DNA of 61,362 nucleotides, filler included, from Malassezia furfur (lineage: Eukaryota): the NCBI GenBank assembly GCA_052055015.1. It is 9 parts of 9 records of this genome, joined end to end, with 100 filler letters (N's around TTAATTAATTAA, not from the genome) between each part and the next. Parts side by side here need not be neighbours in the genome. Positions count along the whole stretch, not along the records: positions 1 to 6,833 come from JBQJIT010000523.1; 8 more parts are not named here. One strand, 5' to 3'. The stretch's first letter is position 1; each line of letters starts with the position of its first letter. The position numbers were made by a program, and so were the translations under genes. The notes below the pieces were generated by a model. It did not search any database, had not been told where the DNA came from, and worked only from the letters and a program-made list of their open reading frames with translations. Below, piece by piece: positions 1-54,719 of this stretch.

Positions 1-1
1 A

Positions 2-697
2 GCCCCGTCCACACGCACCCCTTCCCTGCCCCGCAGCGTCCCCAACGCCGACCTTTTTCACACACTCAACTACCTCTACCAACGTGCCCACTACCTCGCG
101 ACATGTGCAGCACTCACCAACCGGCCACACCTCGCGCGCTGGAACGCCGTGGCGATGCGCCAGTTCTTTGCACTCGCACGCCGCGCCGTCATTCGCATGT
201 ACGTCTTCGTCGACCTCTCACACAGCGACCCCGAAATCAAGCGCAGCGTATGCAAGCGGTGCATGCACCTCCTCCTCGAGGGGCTCACGGCACATACGAC
301 CGTCCTTGGTACGCCGCACCCTCACCCAGAAACGCGCCGCACGCGCCTCGTCTCGACACTGTGCCTACACTGCCGCTACGTCCGCGCACGCAACGTGCCC
401 TATCCACCACCCGCACCGACGCGCCCACGCCACCTGTCGCAGCGCCAGCGCCGACGGCGGCACCTCTGGCGTATGCATCACCCTGAGCACGCGCCCAGCC
501 CACCCGACCTCGCCGTGACGCCGTTCGCCGAGCGCGCTCAAGGCACGCCGTGGCGCGCACCGATGCACGCGTACGTGCAGGCGCAGCATGGCGATGTGCG
601 CGCACTCGAAGACGCACTCACGACGCGCGGCGACCACATCACGACAGTAGGGCTCCTGCGCAACGGGCAAGTGGGGCCGCCGCAGGACGCCGCGTAG
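2..697 (+). CDS. RPR2: RNase P/MRP Zn-ribbon subunit (Rpr2/Rpp21/Snm1 family), 5'-partial
   Basis: Frame 2 from the window start reads ...DLFHTLNYLYQRAH...ARRAVIRI|DPEIKRSVCKRC...LCLHC (two CxxC, LNYLYQ and DPxIKRxxCKxC motifs). Probable in-frame 27-nt intron 199-225 (GTACGT...CTCACACAG). Confidence 0.75.
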   Translation, partial: APSTRTPSLPRSVPNADLFHTLNYLYQRAHYLATCAALTNRPHLARWNAVAMRQFFALARRAVIRMYVFVDLSHSDPEIKRSVCKRCMHLLLEGLTAHTTVLGTPHPHPETRRTRLVSTLCLHCRYVRARNVPYPPPAPTRPRHLSQRQRRRRHLWRMHHPEHAPSPPDLAVTPFAERAQGTPWRAPMHAYVQAQHGDVRALEDALTTRGDHITTVGLLRNGQVGPPQDAA

Positions 698-864
698 CGC
701 CGCGGACCTCTCCACGTGGTTTCGGCCTGGTGCCGACGCCGCGGGGGGTTCCAATGCGCACCTCCACAAAAGCAGTGGGGCCACACGCATGCGTTGCGTG
801 CGAAACGCACTGCCGGCGCAGCTCGGAACCACGACCCGAGCACCGCGGCGCCGTCCACCGCACC

Positions 865-2310
865 ATGCTCCGCCACGGTCTCGCCCACGTCCGTCTCACG
901 CTTGCGCGCGCACCTGTGCGCCCGGCCTGGCCCTCGGCGTGCCATGCCCCGGCGTTGGCCCGTGCTCACAGCACGCCTACCGGGCCCCCCACTCCGATCC
1001 CGCGGCATCGCGTCGTGATCGTCGGCGCAGGCTTCGGTGGAATGACGACGATCAACGCACTGCGTGGTGCGCCCGTCGATATCACGCTGATCGACCGCTC
1101 CAACTGCCACCTGTTCCAGCCGCTCCTGTACCAAGTAGGCACGTGCGATCTCGGCACAAGCGACATTGCGTGGCCCATCCGGCACCTGGTCGCGTCGCGC
1201 CCGGAAATCACCACGCTCCTCGGCGAGGTGGATAGCGTCGACAAACACGCACGCTTGGTGCACATCAAGGACGACGCCGATCCCATCCCGTACGATACAC
1301 TCGTCCTTGCGACCGGCGCACGCGACGCCTTCTTTGGGCACGACGAGTGGGAGCACATTGCCCCGGGGCTCAAGACGCTGCGCGACGCCACGACCGTGCG
1401 CCGACGCCTGCTCGTCGGGTTCGAGCTTGCAGAGCGAGTCGCCGATCCGGAGCTGCGCAAGTCGCTCATGACATTCACCATCATCGGCGGTGGGCCGACG
1501 GGCGTCGAGCTGGCGGGCGCCATTGCGCAGATGGCGCACCGCACACTTCCGCACGAGTTCCGGAAGATTGACACACGCGACGCACGCATCGTCCTCATCG
1601 AGGCCGGCACACGCGTCCTTAGCTCCTTCCCAGAAGATCTCTCGGCGTATGCCAAGCGCGCGCTCGAGGACCTCGGCGTCGAAGTCAAGCTGAACCAGCC
1701 GGTGTCGGACTTGCAGGTAGACCGCGTCGTCGCTGGCAACGAGACCATCCCGTGCTCGACCATCTTCTGGGCCGCCGGCGTCCAGGCGTCCGTCGCACAC
1801 CGCTGGATCTCCGCGCCGACCGACAAGGCGGGGCGCATCCAGGTCGAGCCGGACCTTTCGGTGCCGCACCACCCCGAGATCTTTGCGATCGGCGACACCG
1901 CCGCGGTGCACAACGCGGACGGCAGCCCGGTGCCGGGCATTGCCCCTGCCGCCAAGCAGATGGGCAAATATGTGGGGAAACTCGTGCGCAGCCGCATCCA
2001 TGGCGAGCCGGCGCCTGCACCGTTCCGCTACGTGGACATGGGCAGCCTCGCGACCATCGGCAAGAACAAGGCGGTAATTAGCTACAAGGGATTCAAGCTT
2101 CGGGGCTGGATCGCTTGGTGGATGTGGGGGCTCGCACACATTTACTTCCTCATCAGCGTCCGCAGCCGCCTGAGCGTCGCACTCAACTGGCTCTGGAACT
2201 TTACGCGCAACTTTCGCGCCTCTCGCGTAATTACGCAGGACCCGTTCCAGGACTTTCCCAAGGGCTTTCCGGAAAGCGTTTCGAAACGCCGCCAACGTGA
2301 GAATCCATAG
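865..2310 (+). CDS. ndh: Type II NADH:quinone oxidoreductase (NDH-2), bacterial-type, with a putative N-terminal mitochondrial presequence; intronless
   Basis: ATG at 865 (MLRHGLAHVRLTLARAPVRPAW..., Arg-rich, no acidic residues). Then VVIVGAGFGG, DRSNCHLFQPLLYQV, YDTLVLATGA, GGGPTGVELAG, FAIGD, PGIAPAAKQMG and a C-terminal WWMWGLAHIYFL membrane segment. Confidence 0.9.
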   Translation: MLRHGLAHVRLTLARAPVRPAWPSACHAPALARAHSTPTGPPTPIPRHRVVIVGAGFGGMTTINALRGAPVDITLIDRSNCHLFQPLLYQVGTCDLGTSDIAWPIRHLVASRPEITTLLGEVDSVDKHARLVHIKDDADPIPYDTLVLATGARDAFFGHDEWEHIAPGLKTLRDATTVRRRLLVGFELAERVADPELRKSLMTFTIIGGGPTGVELAGAIAQMAHRTLPHEFRKIDTRDARIVLIEAGTRVLSSFPEDLSAYAKRALEDLGVEVKLNQPVSDLQVDRVVAGNETIPCSTIFWAAGVQASVAHRWISAPTDKAGRIQVEPDLSVPHHPEIFAIGDTAAVHNADGSPVPGIAPAAKQMGKYVGKLVRSRIHGEPAPAPFRYVDMGSLATIGKNKAVISYKGFKLRGWIAWWMWGLAHIYFLISVRSRLSVALNWLWNFTRNFRASRVITQDPFQDFPKGFPESVSKRRQRENP

Positions 2311-2560
2311 CGGCGCAGCAAAGCTTGGCGAGGACCGCGCATAAACACGGCGAGACGTTTGCGCCAGCACGAAACACACGTTTATACGAGGAATGCCATC
2401 TATATCGTAGGATCCACGCTGCGCTCGAGCCTAGGGCACTCTGAACAGCCAGCGCCAGTGTCCTCCACCATGCCAAAATTCGATAAAAAGGCCCAATTTC
2501 CTCTGACTGTGGAGGCTCGCCCCGCATCCCTACCATGCCAAGCTCGACTTTCCTTCGCCC

Positions 2561-4095
2561 CTAGACACGCGCAAAACTACCTTGTTGCAGCGCTTCCACA
2601 ATCTCGGAGCGCCAACGAGCAATACGTTTCTGGTGTCCGGCCTCGAAAATTTGCATCCACGCTGGGTCAAAGGGAGGTAGTGGGCGTCCCGGTCCGTCAT
2701 TTCCTGCAAGGTTTCGAATCGTCTCGAAATACTCTTGAAACTCGGGGAAGAGGGCTGTGAATTTCGGACCATTGCCGCGCACCTTTATACGATCCATCTC
2801 CCACTGCTCTTGCTCAACTCGGGGAGGCAAGTGCGCTCGGCCGGCCAACACACGACTGGCAAGCACGGCCTGCCACTCGAACGCTTTAAAGGTCAATCCA
2901 GCGGCAATCTGCATGCGTTAGCAATAACGACACACGCATACGTACCGCTCCCACGAATGCCAAAGTAGAATCATTTATGTTGAATACGTGCAGATACAGT
3001 CCATTGACCCTGTTTCCATCCAGGCACAAGTCCGGCAAATAAGGATAGCTGTAGCGATAGCCTGTTGCAAAAATGATTTTGTCGACCCGGTTTGCCACAG
3101 AGCCATCGCGAAAATACACCGTGCGCTCTGCTGGCGCAATGTGGCTGATCTCGGAACGACGAACAATCCCGGGATGATTCAACGCTGCATCTCCAAAGAA
3201 CGGGTGAACGGTGCCTCGTGATGACGACACCACAGGCGACTTGGCCATGCCGATCAAGTCATGCGCGATGTCCATACCCGACACGGATGAACCGACTACG
3301 ACCACATTCTGGCATGAGCACGAGTGTGGTATACCTTACCATATTTCGATAATGCTCCCGATGCCGATAGTTTTTCGCATGTTCCACCGTAAAGGGATAC
3401 AATTGCTCGAACGCAGCCAGGCCTGGGATGTCGGGGAGGTTGGGCACATTGTAGTGTCCCGAGCACACGACAAGCGCATCAAAGCGCTCCTGCCACCAAT
3501 AATCAAGATCATCATCCGACCGCCGAAGGGTCAAGACCCATTCGGTACCCTGCTTCTCCGCTTTTTCAACCGTGGTGTTGTACTCAACCAGCTTCTCGTA
3601 GCCTTTTCGCTCACATAGGCTTTGGATGTATTGCTGAATCACGCTGTGGTGACGGAAGGGGGTCGTGGGACCATACGCGGCAATGGATGCCTCGGATCGA
3701 ATTTCTGGGATCGGCTCCTCGGTAAACTCCATGGCTCTGGCGTCCACATTCGACTCAAGGTAGGGATACGTTGGCGTATGTGCGTAACGTTCTTGCTGAC
3801 CTTTTTCCTTATAGCAGGGAAGTTTTTTCGGTAAATTAAGAGGCGGATCAAGTTGGGAGAGCTCAGCAATTCCTACAGGCAACCGACGCGACGAGGGGTT
3901 TTCGTCCAAAAGCCTAGAGTGTTAGCCTTTCCATGCACTAGGCCATACGTACCATACACCTCCAGCCTTTTCACGCCGCTCAAACACCTTCACAACGTCA
4001 AATGCCTTCTCGCGAACCAAGGAGTCAAGCGCAATGGCACCAGAGGGCCCAGCACCAATCACTGCTACACGCTGAACGTGATGCTCACGAGCCAT
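2561..4095 (-). CDS. Flavin-containing monooxygenase (FMO/thiol-specific monooxygenase-like), 4 exons
   Basis: MAREHHVQRVAVIGAGPSG...FERREKAGGVW, CSGHY, HAKNYR, VVVGSSVSGMDIA, IIFATGY, LAFVGA|IAAGLTFKAFEWQAV. Introns 3914-3952, 3309-3339 and 2909-2945 restore a continuous frame. Confidence 0.88.
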
Positions 4096-4522
4096 GTTTT
4101 GTAGCGTAGCAGAGGGGAACGCAGATACCTATCTGAAACACTATCCTTTAAACTTAGGAAGGGCATCCAGCCAATACAGAGGTCCACACTACAGGTGCGA
4201 CGGTCAAGAGCACGCACGTATCATGACGTGCTCTTGTGTGGAATTTTGCGACATCGTGGAGAAGCACGTGGCTGGAAGTAGGCACGGAGATCGAGTTCCT
4301 AGGTCGCCCCACAACCATTTTCTCCACACGCAATGCTCTCCTGCTTTATTTTGTCATTCATCAGCATCATGTGATTGACCTCACTCATTGTCCTTCTCAC
4401 GCAGCAACATAACATTTGCCCTATACCTACTCCATCTTGCGTGGTTTTGGCTAGATCCAGAAACACTTTATGTAATCTAGGAACACACTATCATCGGTAC
4501 GATGCACTCGTAATTGATCTAC

Positions 4523-6179
4523 TTAGACGTCACCAACCTTGTCTTTCACCGGCTCCATCCCTGCCATACGGGACTTTTGACGTAAACTTGCACCAAACTT
4601 GTAAAACATGGCAGTTATTGGCAGCAGCAAAAGTGCCAACCCGCCAAGAAGGCTGCATCCGCCCTGAATGATGAGCTTTTTAAACATTTGTGTGGAGAAA
4701 AGAGGAAATGCACCACCCGCTAATGCACGGAACAGTCCGTTGCTTGCATAGGCTGAAGCAGTATACACTGGGTACATTTCTCCCAAGTATCCAAGAAATC
4801 CCTGGAAAAGGAGAAATATGGCGCACTGGAACACTCCGTAGGCCGCGAGGGGTGCATAAACAGGTACACCAGAAAAGGATGTCCAGCCAAACTTTGTGAG
4901 TGCTTCACTATGCTAACGTACCCAAAAAAGCGAAATTGGAACTAAGACTCCACCGACAAAACACGCCTGCATTCTGTATTCCGGCTTCCACTTGCCTGAT
5001 TTGAACCACGGAAGGACAAGCCTTTGGTTGTAAATGCAATACAATATCAAAGCAACTGCGCACACGATCCAACCCGTCACGTAGGCACTGCTAGATTGAC
5101 CTAGTGAGAGTTGGTGGCGCCCCTGAAATGTCTGTTTGTAAGCAAAAATTCGAGGTTGTTTCGTACAAGGGGAAAGGCTTCAAAACTGTTGTTAGCAAGG
5201 GCTCAAACACATACAAGCAGTAGGTAATCCCATAAACATAGGTAATATAAAGGTTGCTAAAGAACAGAACGGGTTCCGTAAACGTCATGTGCAAGGGTCG
5301 AAACAGAGTACTGTAAGCAAGCTGGCTCAGTGTAAGCTGAGCGTCGCGGTCTTCCCCTCGCGAGTGAATGTTTGCGTTCCCGGTAATGCGGCGTAAGACG
5401 CGGGCCCGATGAGTGAGGATCGAATCCGCATTCGTCTCGGGCATGAAAAAGAAGGCAATGAGCCATGTGAGTCCTGTTCCACAGAGTAATGGCCAGATCA
5501 TCCAACGCCATCCTTTCTCCTGAACAGCAAATCCCGATAACAGTGGGCCCATTCCAGGACCACCGCATGCTGCATATGACCAGCATGCAATTCCATTCAT
5601 GAATCCTCCGTCAAGATTCCAAATGTCGCCCATTGTCGCACCCCCTGTAGCTAGAACAGGACTTTCAAGAAACCCAGCGATGAAACGCAAAATCATAAAG
5701 CCTGCGACGTTGTTGCATTGTGCCATGGGGATTTGCATAATGACAAATAGCCCAATACTCACAACGTATGGCCAATTGCGGCCAATGCGGGCAACCTCGG
5801 TAATAGGTGATAGGATCATCGGCCCGAGTCCATAGCCCCATACGAATAGAGAAATGCTCAAGGAGGAGGCGGTTTCCGATATGCCGAACACCTCGCTGAA
5901 TTCAGGAATGCCTGGTACAACGATACTGCTTCCAAGATACACAAACACCGTCATCAAGCAAACCAGAAATGTCACGAAACATTTGTAGAGAAAAGGCCAG
6001 TTTTTGGGATTTTCGGGATCATCGTCTCCGTTCCAATCCACTTAGAGACTCTCTTGTGTACCAAAATAACTTGGTGGTTTGCTCTTTCCCTGCACGATGC
6101 TCTTCTCAAAACGCGTCTTGAACAAATGCTGACCACTAACCAAATACACCACGTTACCGAAAGCAGTGGTAGCAAACAT
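4523..6179 (-). pseudogene. DHA1-family MFS drug:H+ antiporter, otherwise intact but with one in-frame TAA at codon 46
   Basis: ATG at 6179 (MFATTAFGNVVYLVSGQHLF...QESL), TAA at 6042-6044, then VDWNGDDDPENPKNW, GYGLGPMILSPITE..IGR, PEYRM, SLFW|FGWT, YTASAYASNGLFR. Introns 5186-5214, 5132-5166 and 4892-4921. The family call is firm; pseudogene status is less certain. Confidence 0.65.
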
Positions 6180-6760
6180 AGGAGTCGGTCAGTTTGCGTG
6201 AAACGCAAATATTGGCTAGTCTCGGACTAGTAGGAGCCACCACTTTTGAAGTAGAGCTGTCATTTATCGGACTCATTGGAGTAGCACGGCAGCGGGGTAG
6301 GATAGCCAATGTGATCATGAACTTCGGCGTTAACTAAGGTTTCCCTGTCTTTCTCAATGACGCAATTCTCTCAGATGTTACATAAACGCAATCTGCATTT
6401 AGTGAGTCTAAATTTAGCTCGTCCAATAAACATTTGCGCATCGACAGAAATTATTGCACATATCCATAACGAAAAGTAGTCTTTACTATACACGATGATT
6501 GATTGGAGGAAATGGAGGGAATTTTGCGTGAAACGTGCAACGTAGGTAGGCGTACCCTACACCATGTGGTTACGGAGTTAGACTATCGCCGGGACGAAAT
6601 GGGAGCGCGGCCTCGGATATTGGCTAACACCGCAAACGTTTCGGGAGATAGAACAATAATCAATGTTGGCGCGCAAATAGAGATTGTTTTGGGGTGGAAC
6701 GTCTGTGTTTGACAAGAGCATAGCGTAGCTTTCATTTTTGGCTGTTTAATTCTGACATGA

Positions 6761-6833
6761 ATGGGAATAGGAATAGGAATTAGGATTAGGATTAGGATTA
6801 GGATTAGGATTAGGATTAGGATTAGGATTAGGA
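6761..6833 (+). repeat. Telomeric repeat array (TTAGGA)9 preceded by degenerate ATGGGA/ATAGGA units
   Basis: Nine perfect TTAGGA copies at 6780-6833 run to the contig end with the G-rich strand pointing outward; variant units at 6761-6778. Confidence 0.88.
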
Positions 6834-6933
6834 NNNNNNNNNNNNNNNNNNNNNNNNNNNNNNNNNNNNNNNNNNNNTTAATTAATTAANNNNNNNNNNN
6901 NNNNNNNNNNNNNNNNNNNNNNNNNNNNNNNNN
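6834..6933. other. Artificial contig linker
   Basis: N44-TTAATTAATTAA-N44 (stops in all six frames). Confidence 0.98.
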
Positions 6934-13741: not shown

Positions 13742-13841
13742 NNNNNNNNNNNNNNNNNNNNNNNNNNNNNNNNNNNNNNNNNNNNTTAATTAATTAANNN
13801 NNNNNNNNNNNNNNNNNNNNNNNNNNNNNNNNNNNNNNNNN
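13742..13841. other. Artificial contig linker
   Basis: N44-TTAATTAATTAA-N44. Confidence 0.98.
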
Positions 13842-20596: not shown

Positions 20597-20696
20597 NNNN
20601 NNNNNNNNNNNNNNNNNNNNNNNNNNNNNNNNNNNNNNNNTTAATTAATTAANNNNNNNNNNNNNNNNNNNNNNNNNNNNNNNNNNNNNNNNNNNN
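20597..20696. other. Artificial contig linker
   Basis: N44-TTAATTAATTAA-N44. Confidence 0.98.
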
Positions 20697-27448: not shown

Positions 27449-27548
27449 NNNNNNNNNNNNNNNNNNNNNNNNNNNNNNNNNNNNNNNNNNNNTTAATTAA
27501 TTAANNNNNNNNNNNNNNNNNNNNNNNNNNNNNNNNNNNNNNNNNNNN
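27449..27548. other. Artificial contig linker
   Basis: N44-TTAATTAATTAA-N44. Confidence 0.98.
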
Positions 27549-34294: not shown

Positions 34295-34394
34295 NNNNNN
34301 NNNNNNNNNNNNNNNNNNNNNNNNNNNNNNNNNNNNNNTTAATTAATTAANNNNNNNNNNNNNNNNNNNNNNNNNNNNNNNNNNNNNNNNNNNN
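34295..34394. other. Artificial contig linker
   Basis: N44-TTAATTAATTAA-N44. Confidence 0.98.
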
Positions 34395-41115: not shown

Positions 41116-41215
41116 NNNNNNNNNNNNNNNNNNNNNNNNNNNNNNNNNNNNNNNNNNNNTTAATTAATTAANNNNNNNNNNNNNNNNNNNNNNNNNNNNN
41201 NNNNNNNNNNNNNNN
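41116..41215. other. Artificial contig linker
   Basis: N44-TTAATTAATTAA-N44. Confidence 0.98.
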
Positions 41216-47876: not shown

Positions 47877-47976
47877 NNNNNNNNNNNNNNNNNNNNNNNN
47901 NNNNNNNNNNNNNNNNNNNNTTAATTAATTAANNNNNNNNNNNNNNNNNNNNNNNNNNNNNNNNNNNNNNNNNNNN
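47877..47976. other. Artificial contig linker
   Basis: N44-TTAATTAATTAA-N44. Confidence 0.98.
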
Positions 47977-47984
47977 CAGGGTTC

Positions 47985-50900
47985 ATGAGTGCGGAGGTCG
48001 AGCTGTTCACCACGTCGATCCTGGGCAACCCGGTCACCAGGAATCGACATGACCGATACATAACCGTGCTAACGGCACATAAGATCCCCTTTGTATTCTA
48101 TGATCTCGCCTCTGATGACGAAGCAAAGCGGCGATGGCGACGAAAGGTATGTGGTCCACGCTGAGTCAGGCACGCGATCCGCGTATTCCAGGGCTGCTCG
48201 TGCGCAACGAATGGGTCGGGTCCTACGAGGAGTTTGAAGAGGCGGTAGAATATGGCGAGCTGCGGCAGTTCCTGGGGGTGGATACGGTGGCAGCGCCGCA
48301 GCCCAAGCCGGAAACGACCGTTCAGCCTGCCGGAAGCGGTCGCGAGCGGATCCCGCCCGCACCGACGCTGATGGCTACACCTTCAGTGGCCAGCAAATCG
48401 GCATACTCCGAAGATGCAGACTACATGCTTTCGGAGCTGCTCCCACAGGGCACGACCATTTCGGACGCCGACGTCGACTCACTTCTCAAGGAACTTGAAA
48501 AGCCGCTTAAACGCACGCCGCGGCGCACCTTCACCCCGTCCAGCCGTACCGCACCATCTTCACTACCATCTTCGTCTAACACGTCCGCCTCTTCGACAGA
48601 GCACGCTCGCTACGAACCGGGCACACGCAACTTGGTCGAGGAAGCGGCCCGTGCGATCGGCGTCGAGCCGAAGCCGCGCGGACCTGCACCGCGTATAAAG
48701 CTGAACCGCCGTCCTCTGCAAGAAATTATGGAGGAGCGTCGAGCGCGGCAGGCGCAAACAGAACATGCACGGCGAAACGACGAGCTCTTTGCCAGTCTGG
48801 GCCTGTCTGATGCTCAGATTAACGACGAAGATGCTGAAGCGTTCTTACGTGACGGTACGATACCCGAAGTGCAGCGCAAGAAGACGTCACCTGTGCCAGC
48901 CAGTACGCTGCGACAGCCAGAGACCAACTTGCGCGACGCACATGGGCCTGACGACACTATCGCCACACATCGGGTGCCGGATCCGGCAGTGACAACATCC
49001 TCTGTGCCCGGACAAGGTACGGAAGAAGAGTCATTCTCTGCTCTGGATGCTGGGAAGAGTGAAGTGGAAGTGGGAGCTGCCCCTGACGCCAACAAAGACA
49101 CGGAATTGACCGAAGATGCTACCGAGCCGGGCTCAGCCGTCGAGGAACAAGCGCAAAGCGATGCGGCCGTTGTGCCAGAGGAGATGCCCGAGGCTTCCTC
49201 GACTGGGGACACCCCGGTATCTGCCCGCAAGTCACTCCAAGAGCGCCTCCGTAAGTCGGTGCATCTTGCCAACAAAACGGCAACGCCTAATGAGACGGAT
49301 GAAAGCGCCGAGGCGATCGGCAGCGCAAGGGCTCCAAAGAGCTTTGATGAAGCCTCCAGCTACGAGGGCACAACTCCCCTTGCCGACGACATGACGGCCG
49401 CGCCTACCGCTGTGCTTGAATCTGCCACCCTAGACAGGGCAGATCAAGCGCCAAGCACGACCGAGACATCGGCTCAGGACCAACAAGGTGCCGGTGTCGC
49501 TTTGGACCAGCTTGTCGCAGAAGAGCCAGATGCACCTATGCAAGCAGATGCCTCGCGCGACACTTCTCGCAGTGCTGACATGCTTGATGCTAAACCGGAC
49601 GACACGGATGTGGTCCCGAGCACAGACTCCAATGTCGAGCGCGTGTCCGAACCGACCGAGGCTTCCTCATCTGCAGACTCCCGCGACCCAAACCATGTGT
49701 CTGAGGGTGCTCAAGAAGCTGCTGAGGCGCCTCACAGTGCGGATGAGGTCCGCGAACCATCGGTGTCCGTCGAGTCTGACGCTGACACTGAGGCAGACAC
49801 CCGTCCTAAAACGTCTCCTGCAGAAGAGACATCAGGTACTGGGGACGAGCCGGCGAGACGCGTGCACGTTCCTGAAGCAGAAGGTGCGCAGTCTGCCGAG
49901 GAGCGGAACGAGCCAGCGGCCGAGGTGGACCAAGAGAGGTCTTCTCAGGAGCTGTTGGCCGAGTCGACTGGCGAAGAGCCTTTCGCACAGGAGCTAGGTA
50001 AGGCATCCATGGTCTCTGCGGGTCCAACTTCATCTATGGAAACGGGCACGGCCTTGCACCAGGAAACTACGCAGCTCAGCGACTCGGCCGGCTACGCATT
50101 GCCGTCGCCAAATGAAGACAACGCCTCCATGGCTGCGGCGGAGAAAGGGGAGGACGGGCATACTCTTTCTACTGCGCAGTTGGCCCCGAAGAGTGACGCG
50201 AATACCGTGTTGGACAATGCATCGAATGACGCAAATCAGGACGAGGCATCTGGTCACGTCCCGGCCAACAATGCGGAGCAAGTGAATGAACAGGTGGATG
50301 ACCCCGTGGATGAACGCACGGATTCCCCTGCGGACCAGCGCACGACACAGTCCGAACTTGCGTCCGAGGCGCCAGCGGTACCGACCGACGAATCTGATCG
50401 TACTGCGGAAGAACTCCACAAGTCCCTTGATAAGGTCAATTTGGGTGAAAGTCCTGCTTTGGAAGAGTCGCTGGGGACGCAGGTGCTGGCAGAGGTGCCT
50501 GGCATGGAACCGTCTATGGCAGATACCCAGGATCTCGCCTCGTCGGACGTGCGGGGCATCAAAGAGGCTACCCTAGGCGACATGTCCCAATCATCTCCTC
50601 TCGGTCACAGCGATGGACGGGACGGAAAGCCGATGCCCATGGAGCGCCATACGCTCGAACAACCTCTGAGCGGCACAGATTTGGCCGACGAAGGCGACTT
50701 GCCGCATTCAAACGCAGAGATGCTGCCGGCTGAGGGTCAAACAGGTACCTCGCTTACGTCGGCAATGGCCGAGCTCGATGTTCCCGTGGATCACTCGAGA
50801 CATCCACTGGAAGAGCCTCTGAGCGATGCACAGTTGAGCAAGGATGACGAGGGTACCTTACAAGAGGACCGCAACATCAGTGAGGCCCCGCAGGGCTCAG

Positions 50901-53900
50901 CCGCGCAGCCTTTGGTCGGTGGTGCGGCGGGGTCGCCCTCGGAAAAGACCGGCGACGCCTCTCGCCCTTCTCAGGAGTCAGTGATGGAGGCCACGCAGGA
51001 CGAACTTCCCCCCTTGCCATCAAAGGACGCTTTGTCGCCTACCGTAAAGAGCACGACCACCATGCCGTCTCAAGATGAGAGCTGGTCAGAGGACAAGGCA
51101 GGGCTGAATGTGACTCCCTCCGAATTGGCTCGCCAGAGCGCCGACGTTGCAATGCCATCCGTGCCAAAAGTGGAGGCGGAAACGGTAGGGGCCATCGAAA
51201 CGAGCGACTCAGCGGGGGTGCCCGAGAAAACCGATACTCTTCAGTCGACCGAGACAGAGTCTGTTCCCCGGTCGGCCCTGGTCGAGCCCGCAGATTCTCG
51301 GGACGAGAAACGGCAGACACCGGAGCCAGCACAAGACCCATCCATCGACGCGACCACTGGCCTAGCGGCTACGCCGAGCCTGCCAGCTGCGGAAGCCAAT
51401 GCCAACTTGCCGCAGACCGAGCCTGCTCACTTGGCACTGGCAGATTCGTCTGCTCAAGATGAGGCTGAGGTGCCAGTACTCCAACAAGCAACCGCACCTG
51501 CTGCCTCGCGCGCCGTGGAGACAGATACGCGGGCTTCTTCGGATGAGCCGTCTACGTCGTCCAGACCAACGACAGACAGTCTTGGGCTCTCCAAGGCGGA
51601 CCCAGCGCCCTCTACGCATCCATCGACCGCATCTACCCATCACACCTCGCACACGCATTTCCACCAGGGCCACACGCATTGGAACAACGAGCAGGACTTG
51701 GATGAAGCTGTGCTCGCTGCGCCGCCTGGGCCACAAGCCACTCATGTGGACGACAGTGCGACCTTGGATCACTTTGCCGGATCCGATGGCCATGTACGCG
51801 ACCGTTTGCGCAGCATTCAGCGCTCTGACAGTTTCCAACACGGGATGCGGCACATCGGCCATGGCGCAACAAAGGAACAAGAACGTGTTGCGCTGCATCA
51901 GACGCTGGACCGCTTTAGCTCGCTAGAGCCGCCGCTGCAGGCAGACCCAGCGATACCACAGCCGACGCCAATGGCGGCCTCCACGGACGTAAGCCGCCAT
52001 GTGCTGGAGCCGACCCTTGATGCGGACAGCTCGGCCCGTGATGCCAGCGCCAGCGCCAGTGCCTTACCGGAGGAGACACGCCACGCGGCCGAGCAGCTGC
52101 CGCACCATGCCTTGCCGCCGTCCGACCGACGACGCGTGTCGGCGGATGCGTCGCCCGAAGAAGAGCGCGTGGCAGTACACCAAGTCGTGGACCGCTTCAG
52201 TGCGCTCGAGCCGCCGCTTCATGTCACAGCCAGCCCACGCTCGCCACAGCCTCGCGCGCCAGATGCGCGGCATGTGTCGGCGGATGCCTCGGCAGAAGAG
52301 GAACGCATCGCTGTGCACCAGGTGGTGGACCGTTTCAGTGGGCTGGAGCCGCCGCTCCACGCGACCTCTTCTCCGCGCTCACCGCGGCCTGATGTGCCAG
52401 ACGCTCGCCACGTGTCGGCAGATGCCTCGACGGAGGAAGAGCGCATCGCCGTGCATCAAGTGGTGGACCGATTCAGCGCACTGGAGCCGCCCCTGCATGC
52501 CGATTTGGGAGCGGAGGAGTCGGACGCCACGAGCCGTGCGCCGTTGGCGCGCGACCCGCTGGAATCGGCACGCATTGCGCAACACCAGGTGATCGACCGC
52601 TTCAGTGCACTCGAACCGCCGCTGCCTGATTCATCCGCTGATAAGCCGAGCGACGTTCCGCCGTCTGCGGCGCACCCAACATCATACGCGTCCGGGAACG
52701 AGCCCGATTCGAGCGAAGGCGAGGACGACGACGACGTGCCCGATCTCTGGGTATCGAACCCCTCCCGTGCGTCACAGGCGCTACACCGACACTCGGGCGT
52801 CGATTCGGACTGGGACGCCCAGGCCAGCGACATGTCGGGCTCTGTGGACGAGGCAGTGCGTGTGCCGGTAGACCTTGGCAAGCTCAGCGCGGCGCAGCGG
52901 TCCGACGAACCGGGCAATATGCAAGCGCCCGGGTCGCCGCCGGTGCTCCACTCGGCGTCTTCGCGTGCGCTGGACGAGTCCGAGTCGGACTACTCGCAGG
53001 ACGAAGAGTCGGCCGACAACACCCCCGAGCACATTGTCCTGTCTGGCGCGCCGGCACCGCTCACAGCACCGCCGCGGCCACAGGACGCCGTGGGGGTGAC
53101 ATCGCCTGACAACACGGTGCCGGATCGCGACACTGACACGCCGAAACTCGAGCGCGAAGTACCAGCCTCGGTCGCAGCCGCGCGCGATTTGTCTGGAGTG
53201 AGTCCATCGACGCCCACGAAGTCGGCGTTGGTCGCAAAGCAGTCGTTGCCGTCGACGCCGCAGCATGCGGGCGACGTACTCCCTATGGGATCGGGCACCG
53301 ACACGCCTATGGCAGGCTCGGCGCACGAAGCGGATACAAGCAAGGCGCCAGCCGAGGCTTCGAGCGCTGCGACGCAGCAAGAGTCAACGGCGACCCAGCC
53401 CGACGACAACGTGGGTGCGCCGCTTACGCAGCACACGCCCTCGTCGGAGTCACGCGATGTGCCGAGCGGCGAGACCGACGTGCTTGGCACGATGCCTCAG
53501 CGTCTCCCGACGTCGCCACAGGCCTCCTTGTCGACTCGCAGCCCACGCTCCAGCGCAAGTCCTAGCCTGCGCTCGTTGCGCACCCCGACGCGGCGCGCTC
53601 CCGAGGCCCGCAGTACGGTGCCCAAGTTTTTACTGGACACGTCGCCGCCGTCGACCGCGGTGGCCCTGCCACGCTCGCCACCCAACCCGCCACAGAATGC
53701 GCCATCGATGCAAGACGATTGGCTGATGCAGGACTCGTCCGTCCCGGCGAACGACGCCGGTCGTGCTGATTCGTCAGGCGCAAGCAACATGCCACAGGAT
53801 CCGCCGATGGCCCCGTCGCTGGAGTCGCAGGGCTCGTCACAGGACCCGGCGGACGTTGTTGCCCCGGCCCTGCCCCCCCGTACAAGCACAGCCGAGCGTG

Positions 53901-54439
53901 CGTTGTCGAACGCGACGACACCGGCGCCCTCATCCTCCCAGCGCACCGAGGCCAGCTCGCCAACGCCCGCCAAGCGCCCAGTGCCCCCAGTGCCGACGAC
54001 GCAGGCACCACCAAGCTCGGCTGCAGATCCATCGGTGGACTCAGCGCAGACCAACTCGCCCCGTCCGTCCACGGAAGTGGCGACGAACAGGGATGTTCCC
54101 GCATCGGCGACCCAGCCGGCGTCGCGTCCAGTGCCAGAGACAACGGCGGCCTCCGCCGCACCGACCCCTACCGGTGCGGCAGAGTCTCCGTCGCACACGG
54201 TGTCCGCGGCGTCCTACGAAGCGTCTACGGCGTCGTCCGCGACCGAGGATGACGAGCGACATGTCCCCAATGACCCCCCTGCCGACAAGCGGCGGTCTGC
54301 GTCCGGTACGCACACCAAGCGGGCGCCGATCCCGAGTGTGCGCAGCGTCTCGGGCACTCAGCGCCCGGGTGGTCACCGCAAGACGCTCAGTGCAATCATG
54401 CAAGAAGCCGATGCATTCCTGCAAGAATGGAAGGAGTAG
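47985..54439 (+). CDS. ~2,143-aa protein: N-terminal SH3BGR/glutaredoxin-like domain plus huge acidic Ser/Pro/Ala-rich region with internal repeats
   Basis: MSAEVELFTTSI...VLTAHKIPFVFYDLASDDEAKRRWRRK|ARDPRIPGLLV...GSYEEFEEAVEYGELRQFL; 23-nt intron 48147-48169, then one open frame to 54439. Confidence 0.8.
51875..52624 (+). repeat. Five copies of ExxRxAxHQxxDRFSxLEPPL; three form 138-bp (46-aa) tandem units
   Basis: gtgtcggc anchors at 52136, 52274 and 52412 (period 138); diverged copies near 51875 and 52560. Confidence 0.9.
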
Positions 54440-54619: not shown

Positions 54620-54719
54620 NNNNNNNNNNNNNNNNNNNNNNNNNNNNNNNNNNNNNNNNNNNNTTAATTAATTAANNNNNNNNNNNNNNNNNNNNNNNNN
54701 NNNNNNNNNNNNNNNNNNN
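54620..54719. other. Artificial contig linker
   Basis: N44-TTAATTAATTAA-N44. Confidence 0.98.

Follow-up and report, generated by a model that had tools for sequence, protein, structure and literature searches.

The window analyzed here, i.e., a stretch of 61,362 nucleotides of DNA from Malassezia furfur (assembly GCA_052055015.1), contains at positions 865-2310 on the plus strand an unbroken open reading frame (ORF) whose translation is a protein of 481 residues (P0001). By family this protein is an NADH:quinone oxidoreductase of type II (NDH-2), with the corresponding activity predicted from its sequence. That the gene was acquired by horizontal transfer from an alphaproteobacterium, and is now resident in a Malassezia chromosome, is well supported, because the ranking of similarities, three phylogenetic trees and the evidence from the flanks all agree. 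We assign a probability of roughly 0.72 to a fuller account, in which an alphaproteobacterial NDH-2 was taken up, has been inherited vertically, and now acts as a mitochondrial, matrix-side NADH dehydrogenase. The family of the protein, its bacterial ancestry, its single clade within Malassezia, the chromosomal context, and the presence and conservation of an N-terminal extension were computed here. The features of the gene and its product, with positions counted along the window, are:

865..2310, plus strand: coding sequence for NDH-2, 481 codons and a stop, intronless (translation, Pfam, match to PDB entry 9mqy, homologues).
865..1005, plus strand: N-terminal extension, residues 1-47, putative mitochondrial presequence (alignment A1).
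961..972, plus strand: R-A-H-S, residues 33-36, candidate processing-peptidase (R-3-type) site; motif present in 7 of 8 orthologues.
1024..1041, plus strand: GAGFGG, first dinucleotide-binding motif (FAD), residues 54-59, invariant in 13 of 13 aligned sequences.
1486..1503, plus strand: GGGPTG, second dinucleotide-binding motif (NADH), residues 208-213, with G208, G210, P211, T212 and G213 invariant.
2041..2196, plus strand: NDH2_C membrane-anchoring C-terminal domain, residues 393-444, which includes WWMWGLAHIYFLI (Pfam PF22366, 35.5 bits against a cut-off of 27.7).
2245..2307, plus strand: Malassezia-specific C-terminal tail, residues ~461-481, extending past the ends of the bacterial proteins (alignment A1, columns 460-500).

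P0001 contains the motifs GAGFGG, DRSNCHLFQPLLYQV, FFGHDEWEHIAPGLKTL, PVPGIAPAAKQ and WWMWGLAHIYFLI, all exactly as quoted in the first-pass annotation of this DNA, which had described an intronless ORF. We regard the ORF as intronless because it is collinear with its bacterial homologues from the first Rossmann motif to the C-terminal tail, with single-residue gaps only. Its assignment to NDH-2 follows from the Pfam domains, the matches to solved structures, the Foldseek ranks and the invariant motifs. In addition to NDH2_C, Pfam detected Pyr_redox_2 (PF07992, 1.3e-46) and Pyr_redox (PF00070, 9.4e-13), and no NCBIfam model reached its cut-off. When P0001 was compared with solved structures using phmmer, the best match was the mycobacterial NDH-2 9mqy (1.7e-90, residues 43-459), followed by the enzymes of Caldalkalibacillus, Bacillus (YjlD) and Staphylococcus (~1e-35 to 1e-32), yeast Ndi1 (~5e-30) and Plasmodium NDH2 (9e-23); SQR chains (2e-08) came well behind all of these. 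The top ranks in Foldseek were likewise NDH-2 structures (39% identity for 9mqy, 25-26% for Ndi1), and the hits listed through rank 23 comprised only structures of NDH-2 and integrative models of an NDH-2-like B. subtilis protein (YjlD/YutJ type). By fold and sequence, P0001 is closer to solved NDH-2s than to SQR, CoADR, NOX and other relatives. Across the eight Malassezia-type and five bacterial sequences of alignment A1, both GxGxxG motifs, IGD, APAAKQ and E246 were invariant; E246 lies at the end of the strand that follows GGGPTG, and we take it to be the acidic residue typical of NADH-dependent enzymes. An AlphaFold2 model, built from a 13-row alignment and used for a check of the fold only, contained a helix at residues 415-448 at low confidence (residues 426-465 having a predicted local distance difference test score, pLDDT, below 50), and residues 1-40 were also below 50. 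We infer NADH:quinone reductase activity from the 60-66% identity to annotated, mostly uncharacterized bacterial enzymes; the UniRef label of the M. yamatoensis, M. obtusa and M. vespertilionis proteins is "NADH:ubiquinone reductase (non-electrogenic)".

Two cysteines are also peculiar to the Malassezia proteins. C94 (1144-1146) is found in all eight orthologues, in place of the Ala of the five aligned bacterial homologues, while C297 (1753-1755) is present in 7 of 8, the bacterial homologues having Ala, Ser, Arg or Lys.

We searched 5.8 billion proteins and listed the best 120 matches, with E-values down to 0. Seven of the 120 were Malassezia-type proteins with a long leader (66-99% identity), including one from M. 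yamatoensis and a cluster holding M. obtusa MOBT1_003390. The other 113 were prokaryote-type proteins of 420-473 amino acids, 60-66% identical over 81-91% of the query; among the 21 that carried an organism name, 15 were from Bradyrhizobium, four from other Alphaproteobacteria, and one from an unclassified Pseudomonadota metagenome-assembled genome (MAG), the remaining one being labelled Leptospira interrogans. The alphaproteobacterial matches scored 583-606 bits, compared with 307 bits for mycobacterial NDH-2 and 107 bits (~25% identity) for yeast Ndi1. A second search, with seven Malassezia sequences combined into a profile, brought M. vespertilionis MVES1_001484 into the matches listed. A separate scan of prokaryotic genomes, with one genome per species, yielded 583 confirmed loci; among the best 80 of these, 16 were at least 58% identical, 15 being from Alphaproteobacteria by title and one from an unclassified proteobacterium. 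Finally, HMMER was run exhaustively against 1.84 billion representatives at 50% identity and gave 3,055 proteins at E ≤1e-30, the best being 54% identical; Falsigemmobacter was one of ten representatives that were looked up. Many of the representatives (P0145, P0148-P0152 and others) were long proteins of ~650-840 amino acids, in which ~270-320 N-terminal residues precede an NDH-2 domain formed by the C-terminal 410 residues, one of them having the JGI name "NADH dehydrogenase/putative oxidoreductase".

Three trees were built. The first, with FastTree, used 264 of 292 proteins, after removal of rows shorter than 380 amino acids and of 20 members of Malassezia clusters that were near-duplicates, truncated or fused; its nine Malassezia rows grouped in a single clade (support 100), with the 113 matches from the first search plus Falsigemmobacter as the sister group. 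The second, a quick IQ-TREE analysis (LG+C20+F+G4) of 95 rows, i.e., 77 of the 80 loci, eight Malassezia sequences and ten named proteins, recovered the Malassezia clade (SH-aLRT 99) within a 45-row clade with support of 100. The three loci left out ran into a premature stop codon when translated from the start of the match. The third, a careful IQ-TREE analysis of 60 rows from which 35 distant outgroup loci had been removed and in which the root was not inferred, again placed the eight Malassezia sequences in one clade (100/99), nested in the 45-row clade (100/99). The other 37 rows of the latter were 31 Alphaproteobacteria (Hyphomicrobiales, Rhodobacterales, Sphingomonadales and Acetobacteraceae), three unclassified Pseudomonadota and three with other labels, i.e., a Thiotrichales MAG, a contig labelled Bacillus subtilis and the protein labelled Leptospira. 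In the same tree, 52 bacterial rows from many phyla lay outside and around the Malassezia clade, whose stem was short (0.38 changes per site). The 60-66% identity and the three trees agree with the first-pass annotation, which had called the protein a bacterial-type NDH-2 closest to alphaproteobacterial ones and had proposed a maximum-likelihood phylogeny as a check.

Two of the records with discordant labels, P0009 (Leptospira interrogans) and locus L010 (Bacillus subtilis SK6B4), fell within the alphaproteobacterial clade and are probably mislabelled or contaminated.

The named carriers of the gene are M. obtusa, M. yamatoensis and M. vespertilionis, in addition to the window genome and three further relatives; the named species presumably belong to the M. 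furfur/obtusa/yamatoensis group ("clade A"). Within the Malassezia clade, M. vespertilionis and P0008 were basal and M. yamatoensis and P0006 branched next, the window protein together with P0003 lying beside the two M. obtusa forms. This branching order is explained by one acquisition followed by vertical descent, and the transfer is neither recent nor private to this genome, having occurred before at least five to eight Malassezia lineages diverged. Neither an exact 24-mer from the spacer upstream of the gene nor the degenerate, Malassezia-specific pattern FQPLLYQVGxCxL had any match in a scan of JGI metagenomes.

The M. obtusa-type proteins (P0134, P0135, P0004 and P0005) comprise four mosaic forms, in which two N-terminal thirds, including two unrelated leaders, are paired with two C-terminal variants; only one of these forms is known to be located next to a gene for Rpr2, a subunit of RNase P. 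The four mosaic forms suggest that M. obtusa-type genomes carry two paralogous copies between which there has been recombination or gene conversion.

The flanks link the gene to the fungal chromosome. The gene immediately upstream of NDH-2 in the window encodes Rpr2, and residues 212-306 of the NCBI model for the M. obtusa protein P0135 (MOBT1_003390, 667 residues) match the window Rpr2 ORF (66/97 identical, E 4e-40), with NDH-2 following directly. P0135, which skips the NDH-2 leader and the first Rossmann motif, very likely contains a mis-predicted intron that fuses two adjacent genes. Because it fuses both, the same-strand adjacency of Rpr2 and NDH-2 exists in a second species, and because M. 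obtusa has this neighbour in common with the window, NDH-2 is chromosomal rather than a contaminant. Orthologues were also found on contigs of 456, 792 and 952 kb, and the exact window protein on 29 contigs of up to 183 kb, from several sources. The codon usage score of the gene (a log-likelihood ratio of +0.055 bits per codon) lay inside the range of the host (0.026-0.134, eight Pfam-validated genes), the scores of 10 of 11 bacterial orthologues being from -0.164 to -0.034.

The main difference between the Malassezia proteins and their bacterial relatives lies at the N terminus. The first-pass annotation had noted a leader of ~45 residues free of acidic residues, and we find 47 residues before the first β strand, with six basic and no acidic side chains. 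All eight Malassezia orthologues have 32-60 residues before this strand, of which 4-10 are basic and 0-3 acidic, whereas in 10 of 10 bacterial homologues there are only 7-17, with 0-2 basic and 0-2 acidic. As an anatomical feature, the acquired presequence that had been proposed is therefore borne out (8/8 in Malassezia versus 0/10 in bacteria). The window leader lacks a long hydrophobic stretch of the type that a signal anchor or an ER signal needs. The leaders are poorly conserved except for a motif, [RK]-x-[YLH]-[SH], found 10-17 residues before the Rossmann strand in seven of the eight orthologues (RAHS, RGLS, RAYS, KSYS, RAYS, RLLS and RTLH). Six of the seven lie in the same columns of alignment A1, and that of M. 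vespertilionis, which is outside A1, lies at a similar distance from the strand. We take this motif to resemble the R-3-type site of the mitochondrial processing peptidase and Icp55. Mitochondrial import of NDH-2 is likely, given the basic extension in 8/8 orthologues versus 0/10 bacteria and the motif in 7/8, although it is predicted from sequence.

These results are consistent with the following sequence of events, in which we infer import, the cleavage site, the side of the membrane, the substrate and the physiological role. The ancestor of several Malassezia species would have taken up the gene from an alphaproteobacterium, and vertical inheritance would have followed. After integration beside Rpr2, the gene would have gained ~35-50 codons at its 5' end, encoding a basic, hydroxylated and nearly acid-free leader, as well as a short C-terminal tail. 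The leader would act as a cleavable matrix-targeting presequence, so that the enzyme would be imported into mitochondria, where its C-terminal amphipathic helices would attach it to the matrix face of the inner membrane, i.e., the topological equivalent of its location in bacteria. Electrons would then pass from NADH via FAD to ubiquinone without proton pumping, in parallel with complex I, whose domains the Pfam table in Wu et al. (2015) records for all Malassezia.

Several points weigh against this account, or limit how far it can be taken. The immediate sister of the Malassezia clade was weakly supported (28/6 and 14/6), so that no donor genus can be named, and the donor can be described no more closely than as an alphaproteobacterium within the 45-row clade. 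The trees comprise no fungal Ndi1 or Nde sequences, the distance from that lineage resting on scores against PDB entries. M. sympodialis, M. globosa and M. restricta were absent among the 120 matches listed, which would not show an orthologue scoring below 679 bits. Codon usage discriminates only weakly, because G+C content at third codon positions (GC3) is nearly equal in the host (0.75-0.93) and the candidate donors (0.71-0.93), and one bacterial gene had a host-like score (+0.166). With regard to the leader, the window sequence contains many prolines beyond residue 16, which makes it less than ideal as an amphipathic helix, and M. yamatoensis has ANYS at the motif site, without a basic residue. 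The motif is suggestive only, because the pattern was defined after the sequences had been viewed and without a calibrated predictor. Finally, the AlphaFold2 model was mediocre (mean pLDDT 64).

The alternative that survives best, which we nevertheless consider unlikely, is that the gene was indeed transferred and encodes a functional enzyme, but not a matrix-side respiratory one, its location being instead the outer face of the inner membrane, the plasma membrane or another compartment. It might then act mainly on quinones or in redox stress, e.g., by reducing quinones with NAD(P)H during oxidative or nitrosative stress, as many other xenologues of Malassezia do. Published Malassezia genes of horizontal origin are described as enriched for stress functions (bioRxiv 10.1101/2020.01.28.923367; PMC7426719), and the Malassezia-specific cysteines C94 (8/8) and C297 (7/8), as well as the variable and proline-rich nature of the leader, would fit with such a role. 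Against it, the composition of the leaders (4-10 basic and 0-3 acidic residues, with no long hydrophobic stretch) is that of a matrix presequence, E246 is invariant, the C terminus of P0001 does not have an SKL-type ending, and a Pfam scan of P0001 detected no EF-hand or other extra domain.

That the gene is a decaying or silent xenologue without current function is very unlikely. Its subtelomeric location is one where genes are often silenced or turned over, but the ORF is intact in all eight lineages: the eight orthologues, down to 61-66% identity, are without stop codons and have kept the cofactor motifs, and ~180 columns, including all of those motifs, are invariant among seven Malassezia sequences. 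The possible second copy in M. obtusa-type genomes also argues against decay.

Vertical descent, whether from the mitochondrial ancestor or from an old fungal gene lost except in a few Malassezia, is highly improbable. The relatives of the gene are alphaproteobacterial, as expected for genes derived from the endosymbiont, but P0001 is 60-66% identical to proteins of living Hyphomicrobiales, and the Malassezia clade, with its stem of 0.38, lies inside a crown clade that mixes four groups. No other named eukaryote appeared among the 120 matches listed from the first search or the 120 from the Malassezia-profile search, none of 150 50%-identity representatives fell within the Malassezia clade, and descent of this kind would need losses in essentially all other eukaryotes.

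An assembly artefact, in which a fragment from a bacterial contaminant was joined to fungal DNA, is scarcely credible: although the contig is only 6.8 kb, its GC content drops from ~66-70% in the gene to ~50% downstream, and candidate donors share the GC content of the host, the junction of Rpr2 with NDH-2 recurs in the gene model of another species, the eight diverged orthologues with their non-bacterial leaders form one clade, contigs of 456-952 kb carry orthologues, the identical protein occurs on 29 contigs of up to 183 kb, and it is the high-GC side, not the low-GC side, that matches the other eight contigs of the window.

The window consists of nine contigs of ~6.8 kb each, concatenated with N44-TTAATTAATTAA-N44 linkers, and because these linkers separate the pieces, only positions 1-6833 are physically linked to the NDH-2 gene. 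The other features of this contig, and the linkers, are:

2..697, plus strand: 3' part of the Rpr2/Rpp21 gene (RNase P subunit), the upstream neighbour (Pfam Rpr2, 5.5e-09).
698..864, plus strand: intergenic or promoter stretch from Rpr2 to NDH-2, with an alternative in-frame ATG at 754 (list of ORFs).
2561..3909, minus strand: FMO-like flavin monooxygenase gene of low GC content, the downstream neighbour (Pfam FMO-like on two pieces).
4523..6041, minus strand: gene for a DHA1-type transporter of the major facilitator superfamily (MFS), at least two exons, low GC content (Pfam MFS_1).
6764..6833, plus strand: telomere-like (TTAGGA)n array at the end of the contig (11.5 copies by Tandem Repeats Finder).
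6834..6933, no strand: artificial, non-biological contig separator, N44-TTAATTAATTAA-N44.
13742-13841, 20597-20696, 27449-27548, 34295-34394, 41116-41215, 47877-47976 and 54620-54719: further linkers between the pieces of the window.

The ATG at 754 is the start used in some public gene calls of 518 residues. The ATG at 865 is the preferred start codon, because it has a CACC-ATG context and because P0003 and P0133, orthologues with 87% identity, likewise start with MLRH. An ORF on the opposite strand (538-2379, minus strand, 613 residues) is an antisense artefact of the kind usual in GC-rich coding DNA. The FMO-like gene is represented by three overlapping ORF pieces, reflecting either introns or frameshifts, with FMO/Tmm matches in PDB and NCBIfam. 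The MFS protein is closest to Malassezia proteins, i.e., an M. restricta cluster (81% identity) and an FLR1-like protein of M. sympodialis (71%), with Parajaminaea and ascomycete proteins as more distant relatives, while the identity between the MFS piece and a named M. furfur family member is only 57%. With Rpr2, an FMO-like gene in several pieces and an MFS gene of a Malassezia family present, the contig indeed carries fungal genes, as the first reading of this DNA had stated; its estimate that a telomeric array lies ~4.5 kb from NDH-2 also proved close, since the (TTAGGA)n array starts 4,454 bp past the stop codon and continues until the contig ends.

The unit repeated at the contig end is TTAGGA, which differs from the TTAGGG common in fungi, and degenerate GGAATA units come before it. 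There was no second array of this type in the window, and because the other eight contigs do not end in TTAGGA, it is only a candidate for the telomere repeat of the species. The region from 2400 to 6760 has a GC content of 41-57%, compared with ~60-74% on the other contigs, and the GC3 of the MFS and FMO exons is 0.52-0.56, compared with 0.75-0.93 in eight validated host genes; this region may represent a subtelomeric block that is introgressed or of foreign composition. On another contig, an ORF of 2,101 codons (48134-54439, plus strand) has no Pfam match at E ≤1e-05 and contains a 138-bp tandem repeat (2.6 copies, 52135-52491).

Gene transfer from bacteria to Malassezia is not itself new. 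The flavohaemoglobins that had been cited at the outset as an established case correspond to the published YHB1/YHB101 transfers. Wu et al. (2015; S6 Text, HGT sheet) list eight transfers in M. sympodialis, including PNDR (MS42132_3641), and Ianiri et al. (2020; bioRxiv 10.1101/2020.01.28.923367) describe 30 candidates, including MSYG_3153, an NAD(P)/FAD-dependent oxidoreductase, with many transfers confined to what they name "clade A". A 2025 preprint on the evolution of bacterial NDH-2 reports frequent transfer within the family, with eukaryotes excluded from its scope. PNDR was considered as a possible counterpart of the window gene and rejected, because the published gene encodes a PF13738 protein of Dietzia origin; MSYG_3153 is probably to be rejected along with PNDR. 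No M. sympodialis protein was present among the 120 matches listed from the Malassezia-profile search, although M. sympodialis proteins are in the database. Among the papers listed in our literature searches, none dealt with this gene, and Figure 6 or Dataset S5 of Ianiri et al. (2020) may include the gene, i.e., the case may already sit in a published supplementary list. No new principle is involved, since bacterial transfers into Malassezia, xenologues that gain presequences and alternative NADH dehydrogenases in fungi are all established.

The first-pass annotation had also proposed that the enzyme adds a non-proton-pumping branch to respiration. The part about a wholly new branch is probably overstated, because Ustilago maydis, a related smut fungus, already has three NDH-2 genes, with internal and external activities (PMC6134880); by analogy, the xenologue is more likely to be an additional or replacement isozyme. 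A stronger version, which we consider doubtful, is that in the carriers the bacterial NDH-2 is the main or only matrix-side alternative NADH dehydrogenase, having replaced the fungal Ndi1-type enzyme, and that it is redox-regulated through C94 and C297. If so, the respiration of these species would run partly on an alphaproteobacterial enzyme distinct from all fungal NDH-2s, in redox physiology they would diverge from the M. sympodialis/globosa/restricta group, and the enzyme would offer a target for selective drugs.

On mammalian skin, Malassezia dominate among the fungi. More than 30 acquisitions from bacteria are known in the genus, mostly of redox and stress enzymes, a list that is now joined by a core enzyme of the respiratory chain. 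The eight lineages show the conversion of a bacterial ORF into a putative organellar protein, in which a core of ~65% identity was kept and a fast-evolving leader, with a single conserved motif of the processing type, was added. If imported and active, the enzyme would provide a bacterial-type, non-proton-pumping entry point for NADH that some species have and others may lack, and would bear on redox balance during lipid-based growth. Because NDH-2 is absent from mammals, it would also have a bearing on selective inhibition.

How does the window protein compare with known systems? The closest are the NDH-2s of Alphaproteobacteria (Bradyrhizobium, Afipia, Microvirga, Labrys, Mesorhizobium and others), annotated as "NAD(P)/FAD-dependent oxidoreductase" or NADH dehydrogenase, which are 60-66% identical throughout the catalytic and membrane-anchor region (260/399 residues for Microvirga terricola) and have the same core length, motifs and collinearity. 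Compared with these, the Malassezia proteins have an added basic leader of 32-60 residues and a C-terminal tail of ~20, and are encoded in a eukaryotic chromosome; they also carry derived substitutions, i.e., YQVG[TSA]C for YQVATAS, GEV for A[TS]V, AQMA for AELA, and GKNKAV. The best solved relative, mycobacterial NDH-2 (PDB 9mqy/9mqz), has the same architecture of two Rossmann domains plus C-terminal helices, but is only ~39-45% identical and lacks a leader. The mycobacterial enzyme uses menaquinone in an actinobacterial membrane. Yeast Ndi1 and the fungal Nde/Ndi enzymes (PDB 4g6g, 4g9k and 5yjw) belong to the same family, with the same fold, and have the same job that is proposed here, i.e., rotenone-insensitive NADH:ubiquinone reduction at the inner membrane after import via a presequence. 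However, Ndi1 scored only 107 bits, with ~25-26% identity, placing the window protein outside the eukaryotic Ndi1/Nde lineage. Among the published transfers from bacteria to Malassezia, PNDR differs in being a PF13738 protein of actinobacterial (Dietzia) origin reported from most species, including M. sympodialis, but it, the flavohemoglobins YHB1/YHB101 and catalase all represent the same type of event, i.e., fixation of a self-contained bacterial redox enzyme.

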